The position numbers and the translations under genes are program-made. This document shows positions 1 through 8,265 of a stretch of DNA of 8,265 nucleotides, piece by piece. A model generated the notes under the pieces. It was not told the DNA's origin and did not search any database. It saw nothing but the letters and a program-made list of their open reading frames with translations. Source of the stretch: a virus; IMG/VR virus record IMGVR_UViG_3300044695_004155, positions 1-8,265 of that record, one strand, 5' to 3'. Position 1 is the first letter of the stretch. The number at the start of each line of letters is the position of its first letter.

Positions 1-14
1 TGAGCTACGTGTGA
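1..14 (-). tRNA. 5' end of a tRNA gene truncated by the window edge (identity unknown)
   Basis: The reverse complement of 1-14 reads TCACACG-TA-GCTCA. That is a 7-nt acceptor strand, U8-A9, then the canonical GCUC-A start of a D arm. The rest of the gene would lie left of the window. Confidence 0.4.
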
Positions 15-21
15 ATGATTG

Positions 22-94
22 TTGCGGAGGTGAGATTCGAACTCACGATCTTCGGGTTATGAGCCCGACGGGTTAGCCACTTCCCTACCCCGCG
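22..94 (-). tRNA. initiator tRNA-fMet (anticodon CAU)
   Basis: The reverse complement folds as CGCGGGG-TA-GGGA-AGTGGCTAA-CCC-G-TCGGG-CTCATAA-CCCGA-AGATC-GTGAG-TTCGAAT-CTCAC-CTCCGCA-A (73 nt, no encoded CCA). It has a C1xA72 mismatch and three consecutive G:C pairs closing the anticodon stem, both bacterial initiator hallmarks. The anticodon arm is identical to my recollection of E. coli tRNA-fMet. Confidence 0.85.
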
Positions 95-101
95 ATGTTT
101 G

Positions 102-175
102 TGCCGAAACGTGGAATCGAACCACGGACACGAGGATTTTCAGTCCTCTGCTACTACCAACTGAGCTATCTCGGC
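102..175 (-). tRNA. tRNA-Phe (anticodon GAA)
   Basis: The reverse complement folds as GCCGAGA-TA-GCTCAGTTGGTAGTAGC-A-GAGGA-CTGAAAA-TCCTC-GTGTC-CGTGG-TTCGATT-CCACG-TTTCGGC-A (74 nt). The acceptor has 7 bp including one G-U. The T loop, anticodon loop (C-U-GAA-A-A) and GTGTC variable loop are canonical and resemble bacterial tRNA-Phe. Confidence 0.85.
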
Positions 176-226
176 ATAAAATAAAGAAACCTACGTGTTA
201 CCTTATAGCACTACTGGCACCACAGA

Positions 227-252
227 GGTGCCGGGTGGGAATCGAACCCACC
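227..252 (-). pseudogene. orphan tRNA 3' module: T arm plus acceptor-like 3' strand with no 5' half of its own
   Basis: The reverse complement reads GTGGG-TTCGATT-CCCAC-CCGGCAC-C, a perfect T arm. It starts only about 17 nt after the 3' end of the Ala-like tRNA, so a separate cloverleaf does not fit. CCGGCAC can pair 6/7 with the GGGCCGG 5' acceptor strand at 335-341. It also forms a GC hairpin with 216-221 (GGCACC/GGTGCC). Confidence 0.4.
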
Positions 253-268
253 TATTCAGGTTTCATTG

Positions 269-341
269 TGGACCAGATGAGAATCGAACTCACCACAGGT
301 GCATTGCAAGTGCTCCTCGCCCCCTCGGAACATTCCGGCCC
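269..341 (-). tRNA. tRNA-Ala-like gene (anticodon UGC) with a non-canonical D arm
   Basis: The reverse complement reads GGGCCGG-AA-TGTTCCGAGGGGGCGA-G-GAGCA-CTTGCAA-TGCAC-CTGTG-GTGAG-TTCGATT-CTCAT-CTGGTCC-A (73 nt). G3:U70 and A73, the Ala identity set, are present, and the anticodon loop is a good C-U-UGC-A-A. However, U8 and A14 are replaced, the standard D stem does not pair, and there is an A-A mismatch in the anticodon stem. It may be a variant or a decaying tRNA. Confidence 0.55.
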
Positions 342-352
342 ATAAAGAATGT

Positions 353-868
353 TTATCCGTAGTAGAAATCTTTCCAAGAGTCACCCAAAATTTGAGATAT
401 TGTTTTCAAGTTTGAGGCATCAAGTTTTTTAGTGTGTAACATACGATGATGGTTAGGGCATACTATTGTCAAGTTTGAATGGTCGTCTGAACCGCCATTC
501 TTTCTCGGTATTATATGATGTATATCAGTTGTTGATTCACACCAACCACAAACAACACATGGTATATTCATTCGTCTTATTATTTTCTGTTGTGTTCTCG
601 TTGACAGTTCAAGTATTGAATTTGGTTCATCCTTTCTGAATTTACCACGTGTGGATTTTCCAACCGCCTTTGAATGACTAGTACCTCTTGAAAAGTTTGA
701 TTTGTTCATCTCATGTGCTCTTTTCAATGACACACTCAACTTTATCTTTTGTTCTTCAGACATTGGTGGTCTTTTTGCGTTATTGAATTTTGCCGCACAT
801 GATAGAGAACAAAATCTCTTTTGATGTTTTTTCGTCAACTCATGTTGACATTGCTCACAATGTTTCAT
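353..868 (-). CDS. HNH homing endonuclease (N-terminal Cys4 zinc finger, NUMOD3-like segment, C-terminal HNH nuclease)
   Basis: This is a 171-aa ORF. It carries the HNH core DIHHIIPRKNGGSDDHSNLTIVCPNHHRMLH preceded by CVVCGWC, and an N-terminal CEQC...CSLSC. A Shine-Dalgarno AAGGAG lies 5 nt upstream of the ATG (869-880 region). The gene sits inside a tRNA cluster. Confidence 0.9.
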   Translation of the reverse strand: MKHCEQCQHELTKKHQKRFCSLSCAAKFNNAKRPPMSEEQKIKLSVSLKRAHEMNKSNFSRGTSHSKAVGKSTRGKFRKDEPNSILELSTRTQQKIIRRMNIPCVVCGWCESTTDIHHIIPRKNGGSDDHSNLTIVCPNHHRMLHTKKLDASNLKTISQILGDSWKDFYYG

Positions 869-898
869 ACTGTCTCCTTATTCATGGTGTTTACTATA

Positions 899-927
899 AA
901 TATAGTTGACTGTAACGAAAATTACAA
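899..927 (-). promoter_or_regulatory. candidate sigma70-like promoter for the HNH gene (TTGTAA-N17-TATATT)
   Basis: On the minus strand, TTGTAA (927-922), a 17-nt spacer and TATATT (904-899) end 30 nt upstream of the HNH ATG. This is a pattern match only. Confidence 0.3.
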
Positions 928-934
928 ACAAGTG

Positions 935-1025
935 TGCCTCCATCTGGAATCGAACCAAGTCGCACAACCACCCGTCTTTATTGTATGTGCAACGGTTTTA
1001 CAGACCGCTGACGGGAAATGGAGGC
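935..1025 (-). tRNA. tRNA-Tyr-like gene (anticodon GUA), 91 nt, aberrant architecture
   Basis: The reverse complement reads GCCTCCA-TTTCCCGTCA-GCGGT-CTGTAAA-ACCGT-TGCACA-(19 nt)-TGTGCG-A-CTTGG-TTCGATT-CCAGA-TGGAGGC-A. It has a perfect 7-bp acceptor stem, a canonical T loop, a textbook anticodon loop C-U-GUA-A-A, A73 and a long extra arm as in bacterial tRNA-Tyr. Only 10 nt sit where the D arm should be. Confidence 0.55.
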
Positions 1026-1051
1026 ATGGCGTAATAAGTTTTCAATGAACG

Positions 1052-1067
1052 TCCTTCCGAAGAAGGA
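1052..1067 (-). other. 6-bp hairpin capped by a C(UUCG)G tetraloop on the minus-strand transcript
   Basis: In the minus sense it reads TCCTTC-TTCG-GAAGGA. It lies 26 nt upstream of the 5' end of the Tyr-like tRNA. cUUCGg is the classic hyper-stable tetraloop. Confidence 0.4.
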
Positions 1068-1096
1068 GACACAAACCTATGGAATTTTTCCGATAT

Positions 1097-1127
1097 ATCC
1101 AAATTAATTTTTTGTCATAATTTGGAT
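1097..1127. repeat. perfect 10-bp inverted repeat ATCCAAATTA / TAATTTGGAT with an 11-nt spacer
   Basis: Read directly: 1097-1106 is the exact reverse complement of 1118-1127. Confidence 0.7.
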
Positions 1128-1134
1128 TTTCACC

Positions 1135-1161
1135 GTAAGTCTTTGAAATCAAAGGACTTAC
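1135..1161. repeat. 10-bp inverted repeat GTAAGTCTTT / AAAGGACTTAC-type (one G-T/C-A position) with a 7-nt spacer
   Basis: 1135-1144 pairs with 1152-1161. The odd pair is G-U on a plus-strand RNA but C-A on a minus-strand RNA. It shares the GTAAGTCC/GGACTTAC half-site with the terminator at 1183-1214. Confidence 0.65.
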
Positions 1162-1172
1162 AAAGTTATCCA

Positions 1173-1214
1173 CATAAACAAAAAGGACTTACAAGTTTTA
1201 TCCTGTAAGTCCTT
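1173..1214 (-). terminator. rho-independent terminator after the 46-aa ORF
   Basis: In the minus sense it reads AAGGACTTAC-(12 nt)-GTAAGTCCTT, a perfect 10 bp, followed directly by TTTGTTTATG. Confidence 0.7.
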
Positions 1215-1236
1215 CTGAACTGGTGTGTCTTTTTGA

Positions 1237-1377
1237 TTAGGTCATAGACAACTTACAGGATTTTGATGTTGGGAGATACTCACTATTAAATGTGATACCA
1301 CAAAAAATGGCTCCTTTGCGAGTGACTTGTTGTGTCATCGCCGGATATGATTGCCATGTATGTAGTGAGTTGTTCAT
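1237..1377 (-). CDS. small hypothetical protein (46 aa), not in the supplied ORF track
   Basis: My own translation is MNNSLHTWQSYPAMTQQVTRKGAIFCGITFNSEYLPTSKSCKLSMT-stop. AGGACAGGAA lies 5 nt upstream of the ATG at 1375-1377. A promoter-like element lies upstream and a terminator downstream. There is no recognisable family. Confidence 0.45.
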   Translation of the reverse strand: MNNSLHTWQSYPAMTQQVTRKGAIFCGITFNSEYLPTSKSCKLSMT

Positions 1378-1434
1378 CGAATTTCCTGTCCTAAAAGTTA
1401 TGTCTAAATCCATTCTATATCAATAAGTATGTAC

Positions 1435-1463
1435 AATATACTAAAAAGATTCCACAATTCCAA
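1435..1463 (-). promoter_or_regulatory. candidate sigma70-like promoter (TTGGAA-N17-TATATT)
   Basis: On the minus strand, TTGGAA (1463-1458), a 17-nt spacer and TATATT (1440-1435) lie between the 1475 stop and the 46-aa ORF. Confidence 0.35.
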
Positions 1464-1474
1464 ATTTATTTTTC

Positions 1475-1774
1475 TTACCGAATAAAATTATCTACTTTAT
1501 CATACATCTTCTTTGTTTTCCAACCGTAGTTAAATACAAACCAACCTGCAACTTCCTTTGCAATATACTTTGGTTCACGGAATGTCTTTACATATTCGTC
1601 AATGAACCACTTTGTAAAATCAACATCTTCTTCAAGAGTCCATTCACGTTTAGTAAACCAATAAGGTTGTTGAGCGAACTCTTCGTCATATCCTTCAAAT
1701 CCAACACGACGGAACATTTCGTCAAGTGCTTTCATTTGAAATTCGTCAATTTTCTTTTGTTTTCTCGGTGTCAT
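1475..1774 (-). CDS. hypothetical protein (99 aa)
   Basis: The ORF-track entry 1475..1846 would start inside the terminator hairpin at 1834-1869. The internal ATG at 1772-1774 (MTPRKQKKIDEF...) lies downstream of a promoter-like element. I recognise no family. Confidence 0.7.
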   Translation of the reverse strand: MTPRKQKKIDEFQMKALDEMFRRVGFEGYDEEFAQQPYWFTKREWTLEEDVDFTKWFIDEYVKTFREPKYIAKEVAGWFVFNYGWKTKKMYDKVDNFIR

Positions 1775-1802
1775 TTTATTAACTTGTAATTGATTGAATA
1801 CA

Positions 1803-1831
1803 AGTATACGAAAAAAATCTGACATTTCCAA
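1803..1831 (-). promoter_or_regulatory. candidate sigma70-like promoter (TTGGAA-N17-TATACT)
   Basis: On the minus strand, TTGGAA (1831-1826), a 17-nt spacer and TATACT (1808-1803) follow immediately after the terminator T-tract and lie 28 nt upstream of the ATG at 1774. Confidence 0.45.
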
Positions 1832-1833
1832 AT

Positions 1834-1869
1834 AAAAAAGTCTCACACCAAGAAAATGTGAGACTTTTT
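1834..1869 (-). terminator. rho-independent terminator (symmetric A-tract / T-tract, could act in both directions)
   Basis: In the minus sense it reads AAAAAGTCTCACA-TTTTCTTGG-TGTGAGACTTTTT then TATTTGG. The core stem is 8 bp GC-containing and extends to 13 bp through the A/T tracts. It lies 20 nt after the stop at 1889. Confidence 0.8.
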
Positions 1870-1888
1870 GAACTGGTGTGTAATTTTC

Positions 1889-2236
1889 TTAAAGTGCCGA
1901 ATAAATAGCGGCGTATTCTTTCACATTGAATCTTTGTTTTGCCTTGGCTAACATCTCTGTCATCAATTCATTTTCATACTGTTGAATACCATAAGGCATA
2001 GTTCCAGCAATCTTTCTGATTTCAGCAGTGTGGTCAAGTATCTTTGAATACTTTTGTTCTGCTAGAAGTTTAGCGAGTTCAAATAAAGCCTCTGAACGAT
2101 TTGCCTTCTTTGTGGCTTCTCTCATTCTCTTTACAGAGTTTTCAACTTTTTGGCTAATCTTTTCTTCAGCTTCACGAAGTGATTGAAGTGTTTGAGATGC
2201 CTCGCTAAGTAATTGTTTTCTTGACGATAATTTCAT
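1889..2236 (-). CDS. hypothetical alpha-helical/coiled-coil-like protein (115 aa) with MKL...LLSE leader
   Basis: I chose the ATG at 2234-2236 (MKLSSRKQLLSEASQ...) because GGAG lies 7 nt upstream and the upstream gene stops at 2254. The longer track start at 2266 would overlap that gene. Confidence 0.75.
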   Translation of the reverse strand: MKLSSRKQLLSEASQTLQSLREAEEKISQKVENSVKRMREATKKANRSEALFELAKLLAEQKYSKILDHTAEIRKIAGTMPYGIQQYENELMTEMLAKAKQRFNVKEYAAIYSAL

Positions 2237-2253
2237 TTCATGCTCCGATTGTA

Positions 2254-2640
2254 TTAGTCCCACCAAATTCGGTATAGACCTGGTTCTACTTCATCAAGTT
2301 CATCCGCCTTCAAAGAAGCTTTACTTGGTTTTGTATTCGTCTTTACATAAAGACAAACACTATATTCACGACCAAGTTGAATCTTTGCATCTGCTGGTAA
2401 TTTGTCAATCAATTCAGCAGTGAATTCATTATAACCATCAGGAAGAGCTTGTTTCATAATGTTCATTGCATCTTTCTTACTGAACATTGTTGTGTCTTTC
2501 CACATCATGTTATTTCCATCATATTCCTTGGCAAACTTCTTTGGATCTTTACCAAAATTTACTTCCTTTACTGCCTCATTGATAGATTCAGTCAAAAGAC
2601 CAGCAAGTTTCATCATTCGTTGTTTATTCAGTTCCATCAT
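2254..2640 (-). CDS. hypothetical protein (start ambiguous) containing an MMKLAGLLTE leader
   Basis: The track ORF 2254..2649 begins at a TTG. ATG codons occur at 2640, 2637, 2616 and 2613. Starting at 2616 gives MMKLAGLLTESINE..., which matches the N-termini of the two downstream paralogous leaders (ATGATGAAACT vs ATGATAAAACT). There is no clear Shine-Dalgarno for any candidate start. Confidence 0.65.
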   Translation of the reverse strand: MMELNKQRMMKLAGLLTESINEAVKEVNFGKDPKKFAKEYDGNNMMWKDTTMFSKKDAMNIMKQALPDGYNEFTAELIDKLPADAKIQLGREYSVCLYVKTNTKPSKASLKADELDEVEPGLYRIWWD

Positions 2641-2668
2641 ATATTCCAAAAAATACTATGGTTATATT

Positions 2669-2896
2669 CTATAAATATGATTCAGGTTTTGTTTTCTTAC
2701 GGGAAAGTAAGAAATAAAATCCAAAAAATAACAGCGCAACCCCATAGAAGATAACGTCTGTAATCCAGTAGCTTCCTGTCAATTTCATCACGAAGGAAAA
2801 TGCTGCATCGAAGCCCAGTGGATTGAAGAATGTTCCTAAAACCAAACAAGTTTTTGCGAGGTTGTCTCGTAGTTTTTGTCTTTTTACTATTGCCAT
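2669..2896 (-). CDS. small membrane protein (75 aa, two predicted TM helices, basic C-terminal tail)
   Basis: There are two hydrophobic stretches (CLVLGTFFNPLGFDAAFSFV and WITDVIFYGVALLFFGFYFLL) and a charged tail SRKKTKPESYL. GGGAAG lies 5 nt upstream of the ATG at 2894-2896. I prefer it over the overlapping out-of-frame ORF 2697..2909. Confidence 0.7.
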   Translation of the reverse strand: MAIVKRQKLRDNLAKTCLVLGTFFNPLGFDAAFSFVMKLTGSYWITDVIFYGVALLFFGFYFLLSRKKTKPESYL

Positions 2897-3035
2897 CCGA
2901 ACTTCCCATGTATTTACCTTGTGGTGGGCAATCTGTTATTTAGTATAGAACTTTACATATTCAGTATATGTAGCGAATTCAACTGCAATCGTTATCGGGT
3001 TGGAGTATTTTTTACCAAAATGTAGAATTTCTTTT

Positions 3036-4034
3036 TCATCCATTCTCTTGTTCGGAGTTTTCCTTTGCCTTTTGGATAATGAACGGAATCATCTTATCCG
3101 GAGTGATTTTATTCTTACGACCTTCTTGATAAATACGAATCAAAATATCACGGGCAATAGACCCCATCTTTCTTTTTGCGTTATGTATCTCGGAATCTAT
3201 TACAGATTTAGCATCCATCCCTCCAAAAGTCAGTCTCATATTCCATAACTTACTTTCATATTCTTTCCAACCAGATTCTATGTAATCCTTATATGTTCCA
3301 TACTTCCCACGATCATCCGGTTCCATCTGTAACATTCTGCTGTTGAAATCTTTCTCAGCTGTTTGATTTGACATGAAGATAGTATTTAGTTCTTCCTTTG
3401 ATATACCGACGACTTGTGCGATATAAACCAACCTATCTAATCTTTCAGGATTAGGTGGCATGGAAACATATGGACTTTCATTCGGGTCAATTGGTTGTCT
3501 CAAAGAATCCGCTATTTCTTTTGTCACAAGTTCTCCGTCTCTACCCAATTGAAACTTCTTTTCATTTCTGAATAGAAAACATTGGATGTTTGCTTTTAGG
3601 CAGGCATCCATTACAGCCGTCAATTGAGTCATATTACTCCTGTATACAAAGGCATTTAGGAACAAGTCCACACGTTTGATGTAATTCTTTGCATTAGGAA
3701 TTGTTGGTTCATTGGAAAACAAACGGTCTTCGTATTCCGTACCTTGTGGTCCCATCTGCCAGTAATCTATCGCACCACCCTTATATCGTTGTGATAACTT
3801 TCTCCCGTCCAACTCAAGACGGCAATCATATGATTTACCATAACCACCCCACTTTTGGCGAGCGGTTGAAAGGTAGTATTGTTTATTACCACCAAACTTT
3901 GATATATCTGCACCACTCACTATGCTCAACTCAAACTTGTTTTGCTCTATTATCTTCTTAGCAGCTTGGGGTGATGTGAAGTGCCAGACTATATCTGATA
4001 GTGCCTCTGTTAATATGTGTTTTAGTTTTATCAT
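3036..4034 (-). CDS. 332-aa protein with MIKLKHILTE leader and a possible N-terminal ADP-ribosyltransferase-like domain
   Basis: It is a long uninterrupted ORF. The residues are VWH18FTS, QY53Y54LST, GGY65G and TE100YE102DRLF. Their order and spacing recall the His/Tyr/Tyr/Glu pattern of diphtheria-toxin/PARP-type ARTs. I do not recognise the C-terminal 200 aa. The first 8 codons lie inside the 59-bp repeat. Confidence 0.8.
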   Translation of the reverse strand: MIKLKHILTEALSDIVWHFTSPQAAKKIIEQNKFELSIVSGADISKFGGNKQYYLSTARQKWGGYGKSYDCRLELDGRKLSQRYKGGAIDYWQMGPQGTEYEDRLFSNEPTIPNAKNYIKRVDLFLNAFVYRSNMTQLTAVMDACLKANIQCFLFRNEKKFQLGRDGELVTKEIADSLRQPIDPNESPYVSMPPNPERLDRLVYIAQVVGISKEELNTIFMSNQTAEKDFNSRMLQMEPDDRGKYGTYKDYIESGWKEYESKLWNMRLTFGGMDAKSVIDSEIHNAKRKMGSIARDILIRIYQEGRKNKITPDKMIPFIIQKAKENSEQENG

Positions 4035-4069
4035 TACCTATAAATATGAAACTACGGGGAATATCGTCC
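4011..4069. repeat. 59-bp direct repeat, copy A (54/59 identical to 4783-4841)
   Basis: Aligned by hand without gaps. The mismatches are at 4019, 4023, 4053, 4059 and 4063. The copy covers the first 8 codons of the 332-aa gene plus 35 nt upstream. Confidence 0.9.
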
Positions 4070-4071
4070 GT

Positions 4072-4806
4072 CTATAAGTCATCATCGTCCGGTTCAATGT
4101 AGTTGGACAATCTGTTAGGCAATCTGTCCATAATGTTCTCCCAAAATAGTTCTGAACTTACCGCTATGAATACAGGTTTGGAATACTTTTTTCCAAAATG
4201 AAGTATTTCGTTTTCTTTTCCGTTACCACTGGTGAATGAAAACAAATAATTCATTACCTTTTGATTGAAAAAATACTCATCATTTTGTTCTGAAATAAGT
4301 ATACCATGGTCTCCAAATCTTTTAGATACATTTATATTAGACGTCCAACTTTGAACATCTCGGTGTGGTTTATACGATATTGGTTTATCATATCTATAAA
4401 ATACTTCTTTTCCGATTTTTAATTTAGTATAATCATTATAGTCAGATTTTTCTCTTAGAGGAGAAATAATATTCTTCGAAATATCTTGTAAACCTCGATA
4501 GACTTCTGTACCATTCGGGGTTTCTGGTTTAAATATAGATGGAAATTTAGTTTTTGCATTTTTCAACAAGTCTTTATTTTTATACAAATTGTTTGAAATA
4601 GTTCCATCAGGAGTGCGTACCCATTGTAATATGTATGACAATATCTGTTTTTCTATTTTCGTATTCTTTTCAGAACCAGTTTTTCCCTGTAACTTAACGA
4701 GTTTTTTAAAGAAATCATCTTGACTTATATCACCAAACACAATATCACCAAACGCCTTTTTCGGGTCTGTGTCTGTTTCAGATAATATGTCTTTGAGTTT
4801 TATCAT
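4072..4806 (-). CDS. candidate mono-ADP-ribosyltransferase of the R-S-E type (244 aa) with MIKLKDILSE leader
   Basis: The motifs are EVYR104G, QS153WT155S156N and GKE198NE200ILHF. They occur in the order and approximate spacing of ART regions 1-3 (aromatic-Arg, S-T-S, E-x-E followed by hydrophobics). The tail is acidic (EPDDDDL). The CDS call is firm but the product call rests on motifs only. Confidence 0.8.
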   Translation of the reverse strand: MIKLKDILSETDTDPKKAFGDIVFGDISQDDFFKKLVKLQGKTGSEKNTKIEKQILSYILQWVRTPDGTISNNLYKNKDLLKNAKTKFPSIFKPETPNGTEVYRGLQDISKNIISPLREKSDYNDYTKLKIGKEVFYRYDKPISYKPHRDVQSWTSNINVSKRFGDHGILISEQNDEYFFNQKVMNYLFSFTSGNGKENEILHFGKKYSKPVFIAVSSELFWENIMDRLPNRLSNYIEPDDDDL

Positions 4807-4841
4807 TACCTATAAATATGAAACGACGGGTAATTTCGTCC
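4783..4841. repeat. 59-bp direct repeat, copy B
   Basis: It is offset exactly 772 bp from copy A. It covers the first 8 codons of the 244-aa gene plus the last 10 codons and the stop of the 69-aa ORF. Confidence 0.9.
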
Positions 4842-5019
4842 AACCATCCATTTCAAAGATTTCCATAAACATCCCATAGTAATATACGAAACACGTACCA
4901 CCTGTGATAAAAACGTTGGAAATAAATATCTCATCTCCACGTCTAACAATAATCTTTTTATCCTTCAGATGTGTTGGTTGTGTTATCTTCGGATCTACCT
5001 CGTTCTCTAATCGCAACAT
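4810..5019 (-). CDS. hypothetical protein (69 aa)
   Basis: The ATG at 5017-5019 is preceded by AAGGGGGT with a 5-nt spacing. The stop TAG lies inside the 59-bp repeat, 3 nt before the next ATG. I recognise no family. Confidence 0.65.
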   Translation of the reverse strand: MLRLENEVDPKITQPTHLKDKKIIVRRGDEIFISNVFITGGTCFVYYYGMFMEIFEMDGWTKLPVVSYL

Positions 5020-5158
5020 TCGTTACCCCCTTTGTATGTTTTGGTTCATACGGGCAGTGAAGACATCCCGACCCGCAACAAAATGAACGGCAAAGGTGGT
5101 ACTCTTCTGTGAATACCACCTTCCCGTTTTCGTTTATGTAATAATCTTCCTCTTTCAT
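4958..5158 (-). CDS. DUF5522-like cysteine-rich small protein (66 aa)
   Basis: The segment YYINENGKVVFTEEYHLCRSFCCGSGCLHCPY matches my recollection of the DUF5522 signature (F-T-E-x-Y-H-L-x-R-G-x-C-C-G-x-G-C-x-H-C-P-Y). The low-complexity C-terminal 20 aa overlap the next gene by 62 nt. Confidence 0.65.
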   Translation of the reverse strand: MKEEDYYINENGKVVFTEEYHLCRSFCCGSGCLHCPYEPKHTKGVTNVAIRERGRSEDNTTNTSEG

Positions 5159-5163
5159 TTGAT

Positions 5164-5340
5164 TTACTTGGACTCTTTGCCTTCAGACACAGATGCCTTG
5201 TTGTAAGGTGTGATCAACTTCTTGATTGCACCTAACGCCTTACGAGCGTCTCCTGCACCTTTCTTGAACTTTGAATTGTGTCCGACGGTAAACTCATTGA
5301 ACAGATTTGTAATTTGTTCGTATAGTTCTTGCTTTGTCAT
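5164..5340 (-). CDS. histone H1/Hc1-like small basic DNA-binding protein (58 aa), not in the supplied ORF track
   Basis: My own translation is MTKQELYEQITNLFNEFTVGHNSKFKKGAGDARKALGAIKKLITPYNKASVSEGKESK-stop. A strong Shine-Dalgarno CAGGAGA lies 5 nt upstream of the ATG at 5338-5340. The K-G-x-x-A-G-x-A-R-K-A...K-K-L...Y-x-K-A-S layout resembles bacterial histone-H1-like (Hc1 family) proteins of about 60 aa. Confidence 0.65.
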   Translation of the reverse strand: MTKQELYEQITNLFNEFTVGHNSKFKKGAGDARKALGAIKKLITPYNKASVSEGKESK

Positions 5341-5357
5341 AACGTTCTCCTGTTTGT

Positions 5358-5385
5358 ATAATAGTCGGGATTAGTTCCCTGTTAA
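5358..5385 (-). promoter_or_regulatory. candidate sigma70-like promoter (TTAACA-N16-TATTAT) upstream of the H1-like gene
   Basis: On the minus strand, TTAACA (5385-5380), a 16-nt spacer and TATTAT (5363-5358) lie 17 nt upstream of the ATG. This is a pattern match only. Confidence 0.25.
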
Positions 5386-5397
5386 ATAAATAGATTA

Positions 5398-6216
5398 TTA
5401 CTTGATTTCACAAGAATATTTCCAAATGTAGCCACCACCTTGTTTATATTTCCCAATACAACACCCATATACACTATCCCTACCAACTTTCATAACTTCA
5501 GATGCCTCCTGAATGCTCTTGAATGTTTGTAAGAATTTACCATCTTTACTAAACATATCTATTGGTTTCATCTTACTTACTCCCATTTTTTTACGAACTT
5601 CACTCGGAATTACTTTACCTCTATTCTTTGCAGATATTTTTGCTCTCGTTTCAGGAGAATTTGGTTTTCCAAGATTGTGGGGTATAATTTTACCAGAAGC
5701 ATACAACTCTTTCATCTTTTTTGAATGTTCTGGTCTTGGTTTTCCTCTTCTATTTTCCGCATACATAAGATATTTTTCCGATGATTTCATAGATAAGGAC
5801 ATATTCTTTTTATACCCATCTGACCATTGTGTGCCTTTTCTACTTTTACTCATACGTGAACGTGTTTCCGTCGAATGTGACTTACCGTAAAACGGATTAT
5901 TTACACCACTCGCCATTTTACTCATTTTTTCTTTCCACTCATCTGTATGTTCTGCGCCAGTTCCTTTATTGTGCATATTGTAAAACGTTTCATTGTTACC
6001 TGCATCATAATAATTCAACCAGTATTCTTCCCGTTCTACCATTTGTTCAAATGATGAACATTCCTCAATAACTTCTTTCTTGAAGTTTTCTTTGCCGTAT
6101 TTACGGATTGCAAGCTTGAGTAAATGACCAGAACCAAGATAGTTTGGATTGTTTCTACTATCTCTACCGATATATTGCTTCCCGTTCACCAAATTTGTGG
6201 TCTTGTAGATAATCAT
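5398..6216 (-). CDS. GIY-YIG homing endonuclease with NUMOD3 repeats and a C-terminal helix-turn-helix (I-TevI / Seg-like)
   Basis: The N-terminal MIIYKTTNLVNGKQYIGRD...YWLNYY...N is a GIY-YIG catalytic domain. There are at least four S/T-x-E-x-R-x-K-[MI]-S type NUMOD3 repeats (HSTETRSRMSKSRKG, RPEHSKKMKE, SPETRAKISAKNRG, PSEVRKKMGVSK). The C-terminal FKSIQEASEVMKVGRDSVYGCCIGK...GYIWKY is an I-TevI-like DNA-binding module. GGGAGA lies 6 nt upstream of the ATG. Confidence 0.92.
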   Translation of the reverse strand: MIIYKTTNLVNGKQYIGRDSRNNPNYLGSGHLLKLAIRKYGKENFKKEVIEECSSFEQMVEREEYWLNYYDAGNNETFYNMHNKGTGAEHTDEWKEKMSKMASGVNNPFYGKSHSTETRSRMSKSRKGTQWSDGYKKNMSLSMKSSEKYLMYAENRRGKPRPEHSKKMKELYASGKIIPHNLGKPNSPETRAKISAKNRGKVIPSEVRKKMGVSKMKPIDMFSKDGKFLQTFKSIQEASEVMKVGRDSVYGCCIGKYKQGGGYIWKYSCEIK

Positions 6217-6241
6217 AGGAGTTCTCCCGATTGTTATTAGA

Positions 6242-6341
6242 TTAGTTTGTGTTCACTAATAAATATCGGATAAACAGAAAAGCCAGTTGTTTGGGAGATT
6301 GAGAAGTGGGTTGAACACAAACTAAACAATCACAACTGGCT
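6242..6341 (-). promoter_or_regulatory. two interleaved perfect inverted repeats (14 bp and 10 bp) in the reductase/endonuclease intergenic region
   Basis: S1 pairs 6281-6290 AGCCAGTTGT with 6332-6341 ACAACTGGCT. S2 pairs 6242-6255 TTAGTTTGTGTTCA with 6312-6325 TGAACACAAACTAA. On the minus transcript the 3' arm of S1 is followed by TTTCTGTTTAT, so S1 may act as a long-loop terminator. Confidence 0.5.
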
Positions 6342-6357
6342 CTTCAAATTCAACATA

Positions 6358-8214
6358 TCATACTATATCACATTTTCCGCCCGCGCAGGCCGCTTCTTGT
6401 GAGTGTTCCGTGTTATCATCCAACTCTACTATTTTTGACAAATCAACATCTTTTAGAGTTTCCATCAACTGATGATACTTTTCTTCCGTAATATCTTCGA
6501 ATGGGCTCTGGATGTAAGTATGGTCAGAGAATGGTAATACGGAAACTCCATTATATGAGTCACGATTTGTCCATAGCCATTGACCAACAGCTGGCCATTC
6601 ATTTTCACGAATACTTACGGTAGCCGAAATGTTGTGTGTGTTCATTCCATTCTTGTGACCTGGCTTTATCCAATTTTGGTTGAACCACTTTACGCGTTCA
6701 AGAAGTTGAAGTGGAGATTCTGTTCGCATAATCGCGTGGTCTGGTGCCTTTTGTGGGACACCGATAACTGCGGTATCGTGTGGACGGAAGTATTCATCTT
6801 CTACCAATTCAGGGTGGTTGATTGCAAGGTGAGTATAGATTGCCTCGTTCTTACCAACACGAACACGACGGAGGTAATAGTCATTGTGCCAAGCGTGAAT
6901 ACCAGATGAGCATCCTAATGTAAGAGATGATGTTCCAGCTGGCTTGATTGTTGTAATACGAGCAGCTTTATTGATACCGAGAATTCCAGCAACTCTTTCG
7001 TTCTCTTCCTTTGCAACTTTTGTTGCTGACTTTACATCCAACTTCTGAACAACACCTGAGCCAATACCAGTCATACCAACTCCAAGAAGACCGTCTTTCT
7101 CTGTTGTTCTTTGCCAGATTGGACGAAGATAGTGGAAGTCCGTATAACTTGCTTGAAGTGTTCCGATGAATGTTGCCGCACGAACTCGGTCTTCTAAATC
7201 CTGTTGGTCTACTACGTCTGAAACGTTTACTTCACAAAGATTACAGAATTGGAATGGACGTAGACCGATTTCACAACAAGGGTTTGTTCCCCAATCTTTA
7301 TCGTTTGAGAAGTAAATTCCAGGTTCACCTGCGTTTGAAAGTTCAATCTTCTTCCAAAGTCCCTTGAAGAATTCTTCTGTTACTTTACTACGAAGTAATA
7401 CCGCAGAGTTATTTGCCCGTCCACGTTGAGGATTCAATTCCCACCATGCACCAAATTTACACGAAATCATTTCATCATCATCGGCGGAGAATAGTGAGAT
7501 AAGAGCAGCACGACGAATACCACCAGCAAGAACTGCATCTGCAATATGACAAACCATATCGTGAACTTCGATAGGTGACAACTTGTCTCCATCTTTCTTT
7601 AGGTCAAGAATAGCACGAAGTTTCTCAACACAAATACGAAGTGGTTCTGAGCCAGGAGCTTTACCACCTGATGTGATAAGACGGGCACCCTTTGGACGGA
7701 TGTCTGAATAATCAAAACGAAGTGATGAACCGCTTGTGAAGTATGACTTTACAAGGGCTTTGATTGCGTCTGCCCAACCTTCGATTGAGTCTGACACAAG
7801 GAATCGTCTTTCACGGTCTGCCTTCGGTTTACGAATTTCAGGAAGTTTCTCGACGTGATGTTTCTGAACAGAATATCCAACACCTGTTCCACCGAGAAGA
7901 AGGAACATCACTTCACCAAAAGCACGCCAGTCATCAATAGGAAGATATGCACAGTTGTAAATACGATTCGGTGAAATTTCAATTGGCTTACCACCGAATT
8001 GAAGTGAACGCATTGAAGGAAGAACCTTCTTATCATAGACAAACTTATAGACATTTTCAATCTCGTCTTTTAGTTGTGGGTATTTCTTTTGGTGCATTTC
8101 CTTGTTTCGTGTCACCAACTCTTCCCAAGTTTCCCGACGATTGAGTTCAGGTATGAAACGAGAATACTTCATATAAACCGTAATATCCGAAAGGATTCGG
8201 TTGCTAATATCCAT
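6358..8214 (-). CDS. rtpR: adenosylcobalamin-dependent ribonucleoside-triphosphate reductase, monomeric class II (RTPR type)
   Basis: This is a 618-aa ORF with GGAG 6 nt upstream of the ATG. Blocks match my recollection of Lactobacillus leichmannii RTPR: DYSDIRPKGA...GGKAPGSEPL, VLAGGIRRAALISLFSADDDEM, GRANNSAV, NAGEPGIYF, the thiyl-radical loop GTNPCCEIGL...FCNLCEV, TTIKPAGTSS, and a C-terminal redox tail CAGGKCDIV (compare CEGGACPIK). There is no ATP cone. Confidence 0.93.
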   Translation of the reverse strand: MDISNRILSDITVYMKYSRFIPELNRRETWEELVTRNKEMHQKKYPQLKDEIENVYKFVYDKKVLPSMRSLQFGGKPIEISPNRIYNCAYLPIDDWRAFGEVMFLLLGGTGVGYSVQKHHVEKLPEIRKPKADRERRFLVSDSIEGWADAIKALVKSYFTSGSSLRFDYSDIRPKGARLITSGGKAPGSEPLRICVEKLRAILDLKKDGDKLSPIEVHDMVCHIADAVLAGGIRRAALISLFSADDDEMISCKFGAWWELNPQRGRANNSAVLLRSKVTEEFFKGLWKKIELSNAGEPGIYFSNDKDWGTNPCCEIGLRPFQFCNLCEVNVSDVVDQQDLEDRVRAATFIGTLQASYTDFHYLRPIWQRTTEKDGLLGVGMTGIGSGVVQKLDVKSATKVAKEENERVAGILGINKAARITTIKPAGTSSLTLGCSSGIHAWHNDYYLRRVRVGKNEAIYTHLAINHPELVEDEYFRPHDTAVIGVPQKAPDHAIMRTESPLQLLERVKWFNQNWIKPGHKNGMNTHNISATVSIRENEWPAVGQWLWTNRDSYNGVSVLPFSDHTYIQSPFEDITEEKYHQLMETLKDVDLSKIVELDDNTEHSQEAACAGGKCDIV

Positions 8215-8234
8215 AGTTGTCTCCGATTATTTTT

Positions 8235-8263
8235 TTTCTAAAAACGTTTATTTTTGATTCCAA
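8235..8263 (-). promoter_or_regulatory. weak candidate promoter upstream of the reductase gene (TTGGAA-N17-TAGAAA)
   Basis: On the minus strand, TTGGAA (8263-8258), a 17-nt spacer and TAGAAA (8240-8235) are present. It shares the TTTGGAA -35-like word with the candidates at 1831 and 1463. It sits at the window edge and has a poor -10. Confidence 0.2.
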
Positions 8264-8265
8264 AG

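Follow-up and report, generated by a model that had tools for sequence, protein, structure and literature searches.

Several T4 head proteins carry short N-terminal propeptides. In the internal proteins, positions 4, 7 and 8 of the propeptide are hydrophobic, position 10 is Glu, and the propeptide has [LI]-x-E at its end. According to the mutational map of IPIII, positions 4 and 7 serve targeting, while positions 8 and 10 serve processing (PMC9026906). One leader is found there on unrelated and mostly small, basic proteins, and T-even internal-protein loci are highly diverse behind the conserved targeting sequence (PMC3012670). Alt, a packaged and injected ADP-ribosyltransferase (ART), likewise has a short propeptide ending in [LI]-x-E. 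In the giant phages phiKZ, 201phi2-1 and SPN3US, N-terminal propeptides also target head-internal proteins, and a gp21-related protease cuts after x-x-Glu (PMC5694885). Here we analyzed an 8,265-nucleotide stretch of viral DNA (IMG/VR record IMGVR_UViG_3300044695_004155, positions 1 to 8,265; this whole stretch is called the window), in which four adjacent minus-strand genes each open with a short leader whose last residues fit [LI]-[LIV]-x-E. We consider it likely that these leaders form a T4-type capsid-targeting propeptide system of a distant, uncultured freshwater T4-like lineage with enzyme-sized cargo. A preliminary description of this DNA had read the four genes as a cargo locus of injected effectors, and every computational test proposed in it favoured that reading. 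The genes, leaders and predicted products are as follows.

4072-4806, minus strand: 244-aa gene
4777..4806, minus strand: class A leader MIKLKDILSE of the 244-aa gene, with a predicted cut after E10
4072..4776, minus strand: predicted mature product of the 244-aa gene, 234 aa, pI 8.7, starting with TDT
3036-4034, minus strand: 332-aa gene
4005..4034, minus strand: class A leader MIKLKHILTE of the 332-aa gene, with a predicted cut after E10, followed by ALS
3540..3992, minus strand: candidate ART-fold N-domain of the 332-aa protein, residues ~15-165
3036..3539, minus strand: C-terminal, all-helical half of the 332-aa protein according to the secondary structure of the model; no family match
2254-2649, minus strand: ORF of gene 3, containing MMKLAGLLTE followed by SIN
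2587..2640, minus strand: leader of the 128-aa gene (gene 3), MMELNKQRMMKLAGLLTE, class C, 18 aa, predicted cleavage after E18
2254..2586, minus strand: predicted mature product of the 128-aa gene, 110 aa, pI 5.2
1889-2236, minus strand: 115-aa gene
2201..2236, minus strand: leader of the 115-aa gene, MKLSSRKQLLSE, class B, 12 aa, followed by ASQ
1889..2200, minus strand: predicted mature product of the 115-aa gene, 103 aa, pI 9.3, helical in appearance

The leaders are 10, 10, 18 (or 10) and 12 residues long, and all of them end in L-[ST]-E. The ORF translations agree with the four N-termini quoted in the preliminary description. For gene 3, the leader motif given there stands, but not the start option at 2616: ATG 2640 (128 aa) is most likely the start, because the JGI annotation of identical contigs uses it and paralogues whose bodies differ keep the upstream residues (M)xxxKQRM. 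The bodies of the four proteins, compared by BLASTP without their first 14 residues, gave no match among each other, so the view that they are otherwise unrelated holds. Neither Pfam nor PHROGs gave a match for any of the four, in line with the earlier failure to recognise a family. A homologue of the 115-aa protein in the related locus L030 (44% identity) retains the leader. The 115-aa protein may also have a second site, SLRE followed by A, at residue 22.

At the level of sequence, the leader system agrees with T4-type cargo in every feature by which membership can be tested. Positions 4, 7, 8 and 10 of IPIII coincide with L4, I7, L8 and E10 of class A, although the register is not comparable for classes B and C. 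As T4 leaders range from 7 to 19 aa, the 18-aa class C leader is within range. We compared the leaders with the T4 propeptides of gp22 (MLKEQLIAE, then A), IPII and IPIII (MKTYQEFIAE, then A), gp24 (MAKINELLRE, then S), Alt (MELITE, then L), gp21 (MNEPQLLIE, then T) and gp23 (...FLTE, then A). The shape is the same, whereas the sequences differ: MIKLKDILSE, MKLSSRKQLLSE and ...RMMKLAGLLTE here versus MKTYQEFIAE in T4. Three of the four mature products are basic (pI 8.7-9.3), and that of the 115-aa gene is small and basic like the T4 internal proteins. Similar to T4 ipI, which is located near tRNA genes and segB, the window genes lie near a tRNA cluster and homing endonucleases among non-structural genes. 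The gp21 substrates gp24, gp22, gp23, gp67 and gp68 serve in structure or scaffolding, whereas the window genes are accessory and lie outside the head module. This lineage also differs from T4 in having at least three leader classes in one locus, ~8-10 tagged genes in 21 kb and predicted enzyme cargo of 27-37 kDa. The giant phages likewise have paralogues with identical N-termini, diverged bodies and, in some cases, transmembrane segments; however, their propeptides mostly exceed 100 residues, end in [SAG]-x-E and belong to another lineage, whereas those described here are short and end in [LI]-x-E as in T4 (PMC5694885). Our literature search found no paper describing a capsid targeting sequence in cyanophage-type T4-like phages.

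The leaders extend far beyond the four genes. IMG/VR and JGI metagenome contigs of up to 25 kb are 99.98% identical to the window over positions 1023-5392 and extend the locus. On such a lineage contig (L004/L017; loci are given L numbers), 10 of the 25 called genes had [LI][LIVM]xE ending at residue 7-16, compared with 0.5 expected from the internal motif frequency of 0.2% per position (binomial P ~2e-11). Besides the four window genes, the tagged genes encode a paralogue of the 244-aa protein, two proteins starting MKLSSRK..LL.E, one starting MKDLIQE, and a SAM lyase. The flap endonuclease (FEN; MMIRKYKDLLKE) and RNA ligase 1 (MKYEHYDLLIE) match the motif as well. Both were rejected as cargo and are probably false positives in which the motif belongs to a structural N-terminal helix: FEN of Microcystis phage Mel-JY01 lacks the Glu, and the N-terminus of RNA ligase 1, set against the T4 Rnl1 sequence, looks like a structural first helix.

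Mel-JY01 (190 kb, host Microcystis elabens) is the nearest cultured relative. Its RNR and FEN are 69% and 53% identical to those of the lineage, and the gene order is kept: RecA-FEN-helicase-RNR is followed by three leader-bearing paralogues of the 332-aa family, which start with MIKLKSLLQE, MIKLKSLLKE and MIKLMSLVTE.

The leaders are conserved as peptides. In the 244-aa family (54 members, ~40% identity overall), M1, I2, K3, L4, K5, I7, L8 and E10 are each conserved in ≥90% of members, while the residues right after the Glu vary freely. E10 is conserved to ≥90% in the 332-aa family as well (27 members). Its distant members have leaders of other length and sequence, which still end in hydrophobic-x-E, three residues ahead of a conserved [IL]-S-D-x-V-[WYF]-H. 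Thus, homologues do retain the leader. In 22 distinct genes with MIKLK-type leaders, the codons for I2 (ATA/ATT/ATC), L4 (CTA/CTC/CTG/TTA), K5 (AAA/AAG), position 7, L8 and E10 (GAA/GAG) all vary while the residues stay. Because the leader codons vary synonymously, an RNA- or DNA-level element was rejected as the cause, and the earlier proposal of conservation at the protein level, not by DNA duplication alone, is borne out. Related loci totalling ~2 Mb have the class A leader on 20 BLASTP-distinct bodies, class B on 9 and class C on at least 2. The leaders also lie outside the predicted folds. In the AlphaFold model of the 332-aa protein (pLDDT 84.6), residues 1-9 score below 50, and folded structure begins with residue 15; in that of the 244-aa protein (pLDDT 90.9), residues 1-4 score below 50 and a short helix spans residues 5-11.

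The head modules of relatives contain both a suitable protease and matching sites, for which the preliminary description had proposed a search. Peptidase_S77 (PF03420, the T4 gp21 family) was detected in the syntenic Mel-JY01 (21029-21691) and in related head modules (L042 1104-1775 and L104 5457-6083) with E-values of 6e-30 to 3e-25. The capsid protein of Mel-JY01 and related loci belongs to the Pfam Gp23 family (E 1e-79). T4 gp23 sheds a 65-residue propeptide (PMC9026906). When T4 gp23 was aligned with the capsid proteins of seven relatives, the column of T4 Glu65 was invariant and preceded by Q-L-[IV]-x, with [LI]-x ahead of the Glu in every relative aligned. Among the ~50 related head loci examined, the scaffold gene, directly upstream of the capsid gene, starts with M(A)(R)KDLLSE followed by AIADAK and ends with ...IISE followed by GN.MA.R[WF]KKLAG[LI]K. 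Many capsid N-termini read MDLKNILNE followed by G, or MSDIKSLLTE followed by T. Each leader class therefore resembles one terminus of a head protein, and the motifs are largely confined to termini, as counted in 3208 ORFs (559,000 residues).

Class A (MIKLKDILSE): resembles the capsid N-terminus (MDLKNILNE, MSDIKSLLTE); class A core N-terminal 38, C-terminal 0, internal 6, all in large head-module ORFs
Class B (MKLSSRKQLLSE, then A): resembles the scaffold N-terminus M(A)(R)KDLLSE, then AIADAK; motif [RK][KDQE][DEQ]LL.E[AS] N-terminal 26, C-terminal 0, internal 1
Class C (..QRMMKLAGLLTE, then S): resembles the scaffold C-terminus R[FWL]KKLAG[LI]; KLAG-type motif [RKM]KLA[GN][LIM] N-terminal 6 (leaders), C-terminal 58 (scaffold), internal 0

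Large head-module ORFs of 340-840 aa contain an internal copy of the class A leader, ...KEGT-MKLKDILKE followed by SF (L050 5795, L055 41, L057 633, L117 2508, L045 186 and L047 122). Such copies may mark a site of internal processing or stem from two genes joined in error.

In marine relatives, small genes beside the protease gene carry leaders, namely MKLKDLLNE and MIKLKNILKE at L101 7360 and 7935, and MKNLKELLNE at L110 7290. In another T4-like lineage (L129, 10001-13649), three genes starting with MLSYKEYLAE, MLSYKEYLDE and MLSYKEFLFE surround the gp19 tail-tube gene. The first is a member of the 332-aa family and the other two are unrelated. These leaders are close to MKTYQEFIAE, the experimentally proven T4 targeting sequence. 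The L129 member of the 332-aa family also gave a weak match to an ADP-ribose glycohydrolase domain (PF22545, E 8e-4, below the cut-off). At L132/L133 (~5222-6755 and 9454-10987), two adjacent unrelated genes share the leader (K)MRKMMGLNE, a lineage-specific variant resembling class C and the scaffold C-terminal motif. Of the head loci longer than 5 kb, L042 and L044 rank first and second in tetranucleotide similarity to the lineage of the window (r 0.92 and 0.91) and are also closest to Mel-JY01. By composition and closeness to Mel-JY01, they are the best candidates for the head module of the window's phage.

From the T4-like leaders on the four genes, we infer docking, cleavage, packaging and injection as well as the enzymatic activities. 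The products of the four genes would be precursors of "ejection" proteins, which a T4-like myovirus carries inside its head. The hydrophobic positions 4, 7 and 8 would dock the propeptide onto the scaffolding core or the inner shell of the prohead, and the gp21-family serine protease (Peptidase_S77) would cut at the [LI]-[LIV]-x-E end. Cleavage would leave the mature proteins TDTD..., ALSD..., SINE... and ASQT... inside the head. These proteins would probably be injected into the host with the DNA, whereupon the ART-fold 332-aa protein and the possible ART of 244 aa may modify host targets early, the role that Alt plays after injection in T4. Over time, the locus has exchanged bodies while keeping the leader constant, as the 64-nt repeat and the relic of a 244-type 3' end described below show.

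A further step, which we put forward tentatively and hold to be less probable than not, is that the leaders mimic three docking elements of the prohead, i.e. the N-termini of the capsid and scaffold proteins and the R-x-KKLAG peptide at the C-terminus of the scaffold, and serve a large injectome. The protease site would then separate each docking element from the body, in scaffold and cargo alike, and the phage would sort its injectome into the head by copying its own assembly handles. Such an injectome would comprise about ten proteins in 21 kb, including the DarT/Tpt1-like ART, the second possible ART, the SAM lyase and membrane-active proteins.

Several points weigh against a capsid-targeting propeptide system. 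Neither the window nor the lineage contigs, of which the longest has 25 kb and which contain replication and repair genes, include a head gene, and the link of the protease to the window is through synteny with Mel-JY01 and tetranucleotide similarity. No virion proteomics was found for any member, and a literature search on Mel-JY01 came back empty. The scaffold and capsid N-termini of Mel-JY01 lack the E. Its genome is weakly enriched in the leader motif (17 versus 9.6 expected, P 0.017); the large expansion of leaders thus belongs to the window's lineage. The replication and repair enzymes FEN and RNA ligase 1 match the motif too, which limits its specificity, and hydrophobic segments resembling membrane spans are present in some of the proteins with a leader. 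The Glu of the 332-aa family always stands 4 residues from the conserved S-D, and in two-domain members INE followed by RIS also precedes the internal domain copy; this I-N-E could be an internal cleavage site or a structural residue, and judging from the alignment E10 itself could be a structural part of the domain. Finally, ATATTTATA, which is located upstream of three of the four genes, does not establish late expression.

The four copies of ATATTTATA in the window (4811-4819, 4039-4047, 2670-2678 and 895-903, minus) are all on the coding strand, one each ahead of the 244-aa, 332-aa, 128-aa and HNH genes; the opposite strand has none. The gene strand of Mel-JY01 is enriched in it (17 versus 7.5), and there it lies ~40 nt ahead of several genes, those for the portal and the tail tube among them. 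Apart from one added base, it is the T4 late-promoter consensus in reverse complement (TATAAATA+T). A late-promoter function, which enrichment and placement in Mel-JY01 had suggested, was not relied on, because of this reversed orientation and the distance of only 4 nt from two ATGs. Neither of these two ATGs, located 4 nt after its end, has a Shine-Dalgarno sequence, which may point to leaderless mRNAs.

Among the other explanations, the strongest, though still unlikely, takes the leader as an amphipathic helix for chaperonin binding, oligomerisation, membrane association or degradation, which the head protease does not remove. The helix at residues 5-11 of the 244-aa model is consistent with it, as are the motif in FEN and RNA ligase and the hydrophobic nature of some leader proteins. 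Class A moreover resembles the capsid N-terminus, and the N-terminus of T4 gp23 was reported to target fusion proteins to GroEL (PMC3012670). What such a helix leaves unexplained is the near-invariant terminal Glu of every leader class, together with its match to the gp21 cleavage consensus and the aligned gp23 Glu65. Nor does it account for the likeness of classes B and C to scaffold termini flanked by [LI]-x-E, or for leader genes adjoining the protease gene.

It is improbable, more so than the helix, that the shared 5' ends are a DNA-level feature, either a duplicated promoter/start cassette or a recombination junction, with a functionless peptide. The following elements of the locus speak for it.

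4778..4841: 64-nt direct repeat, copy 1, covering the upstream region and the first 8-9 leader codons
4006..4069: 64-nt direct repeat, copy 2, 89% identical to copy 1
2936..3043, minus strand: relic of a 244-type C-terminus, a 35-aa ORF MDEKEILHFGKKYSNPITIAV... (EILHFGKKYS...), identified by DNA alignment and translation

The nucleotide repeat at the two class A leaders, noticed in the preliminary description, is thus real and spans upstream DNA as well as the first codons. The relic overlaps the end of the 332-aa gene and directly follows it. As the 332-aa body lies between a 5' leader and a 244-type 3' remnant, it has replaced most of a 244-type paralogue. T4 similarly keeps partial duplicates of the alt 5' end (alt.-1 and alt.-2) beside alt. 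Many members of the 244-aa family also share ATATTTATAGGT upstream. Yet the synonymous codon changes at constant residues argue against a DNA-level origin. The upstream DNA of MIKLK-type leaders is unrelated outside the close lineage, and distant members keep the peptide. The class B and C genes have ordinary GGAG ribosome-binding sites (7 nt upstream of the start in the 115-aa gene) and different upstream DNA. The terminal Glu falls outside the repeat: the [ST]-E codons just beyond it differ between the two copies (TCT GAA versus ACA GAG), as first described. Furthermore, the distant members of the 332-aa family arrive at the same hydrophobic-x-E end with other leaders.

Slightly less probable again is that the leader serves some other machine, such as another phage or host protease or an export route, and resembles T4 by convergence. 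The window's contigs do lack head genes, and no direct evidence ties its proteins to the head. However, the leaders lack the hydrophobic core or lipobox of secretion signals, no other protease gene is present in the 21-kb neighbourhood, and the closest analogues of each leader are the termini of head proteins. Chance or compositional bias, which Lys- and Leu-rich N-termini of an AT-rich phage and the false positives FEN and RNA ligase might suggest, is effectively refuted by the enrichment (P ~2e-11), by motifs restricted to termini in 559,000 residues and by ≥90% conservation in divergent homologues.

With regard to the cargo, the 332-aa protein is a candidate for a Tpt1/DarT-like ART fold, as judged from its structural model. 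Tpt1 is a tRNA 2'-phosphotransferase, and the Tpt1/DarT fold comprises ARTs acting on nucleic acids. Foldseek matched the model with Tpt1 (7yw4, E 2e-3, prob 1.0, TMt 0.65) and with five DarT entries, including 7yk3, 7omw and 7omy (prob 0.87-0.96), at marginal E-values. In the family alignment, H18, T20, S56, R59, D76-G77, K79-L80, E100 and E102-D103-R104 of the N-domain are invariant. Because Pfam gave no Tpt1/DarT profile match even at E up to 1, we call it an ART-fold candidate and not a family member. T4 Alt belongs to the R-S-E clade, whereas the 332-aa domain resembles Tpt1/DarT instead.

The 244-aa protein is possibly an R-S-ExE ADP-ribosyltransferase (the type of Alt, ModA/ModB and C3-like enzymes), going by its conserved residues, which follow one another as they should in R-S-E ARTs. 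R104 (YRG), Q152-S153-W154, E198/E200 and H203-F204-G205 are invariant in its family; R104, S153-W-T155 and E198-x-E200, each invariant or conserved to ≥90%, are located at strand ends in the model. Searches with Pfam, PHROGs and PDB profiles gave no ART match. Foldseek of the model found nothing below E 0.5 in PDB and unnamed proteins only in BFVD. Alignment of the family with T4 Alt by hhalign gave E 0.24, the best-aligned stretch being the region of the catalytic Arg of Alt, and alignment with the ART-like head protein of Mel-JY01 described below brought no confirmation. The enzymatic cargo suggested earlier thus gains from the match of the 332-aa model to ART folds, but the ART label on the 244-aa protein, which relies on the triad, is unconfirmed. 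ART-type chemistry as in Alt is plausible for both predicted enzymes, although Alt is far larger (682 aa versus 244 and 332 aa) and no sequence or profile similarity was detected.

That head protein (Mel-JY01, L012, 22429-23595; also L042 2626-3888) has a C-terminal YRA...STT...ESE reminiscent of R-S-E ARTs, and Pfam gave no match for it. Its gene is located between the protease and scaffold genes, a fitting spot for a packaged Alt-like enzyme.

The mature products of 110 and 103 residues belong to no recognisable family. The SAM lyase (L004 19438-20049, PF23780) has its domain from residue 40 on, preceded by an N-terminal extension METKMKLKDIVSE followed by S; with this leader extension, it may be a packaged and injected anti-restriction enzyme. 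Glycine-rich hydrophobic stretches, membrane-spanning in appearance, are present in two leader-bearing proteins of L023, encoded at 3989-4711 (MKDLIQE..., 240 aa) and 5279-6046 (MKLSSRKQLLKE..., 255 aa; also at L002 302-1069). If packaged, the two would be candidate ejection proteins that act on membranes; SPN3US has an ejection protein containing a transmembrane helix (PMC5694885).

All genes of the window are on the minus strand, and small ORFs are present besides the following features.

6358-8214, minus strand: class II ribonucleotide reductase (RNR)
5398-6216, minus strand: GIY-YIG homing endonuclease
353-868, minus strand: HNH endonuclease
between the 332-aa and 128-aa genes, minus strand: 75-aa hydrophobic ORF
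further genes, minus strand: 123-aa ORF, tRNA-Phe and tRNA-Met

The genome is AT-rich (~35-38% G+C). Megablast of the window against 50,697 phage records gave no match at the DNA level, tblastn of the 244-aa protein against phages gave none either, and an Rfam scan detected the two tRNAs and nothing else. The lineage contigs represent a T4-like replication/repair region with a UvsX/RecA-like gene, FEN, a DnaB-type helicase, RNR, T4-type RNA ligase 1, polynucleotide kinase, ~20 tRNAs, the SAM lyase and DNA ligase; a gene beside UvsX is possibly gp32-like, judged by its position alone.

Both homing endonucleases are missing from the near-identical contigs. At the place corresponding to window 178-1022, these relatives have an intact tRNA-Tyr and tRNA-Ala (L004 13010-13177), while the window has the HNH gene (353-868) between tRNA-like pieces. 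The Tyr-like piece (~935-1027), with anticodon loop CTGTAAA and matching acceptor ends, was called by neither ARAGORN nor Rfam, and the 3' half of tRNA-Ala is present in two copies at ~230-295. The GIY-YIG gene region (5393-6594) adjoins, on its left, DNA that is 99.98% identical to relatives lacking the gene; on its right, RNR is only 82% identical, and the last ~80 RNR codons gave no megablast match. This drop marks a sharp recombination boundary at the homing endonuclease. At 4958-5158 (minus), a small CxxC-rich protein matches DUF5522 (E 9e-16). As its ORF overlaps a 69-aa ORF at 4810-5019, which JGI calls as a gene, perhaps only one of the two readings is real.

Proteins injected with phage DNA act before any phage gene is expressed, and this makes them prime candidates for anti-restriction and host takeover. 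To our knowledge, they are almost unknown outside T4, P1 and a few giant phages. A sequence tag would allow them to be listed directly from sequence in the abundant uncultured T4-like phages of freshwater and marine habitats. Candidates at this locus are the Tpt1/DarT-like ART-fold protein, the possible R-S-E ART and the nearby SAM lyase. Since Mel-JY01 is cultured and contains three tagged paralogues, the prediction is directly testable. The likeness of the tag to scaffold and capsid termini is also relevant to the way in which T4-type targeting sequences locate the core of the prohead, a question that, as far as we know, is still unresolved. If the leaders do copy the docking elements of the prohead, injected anti-host effectors could be read straight from metagenomes.

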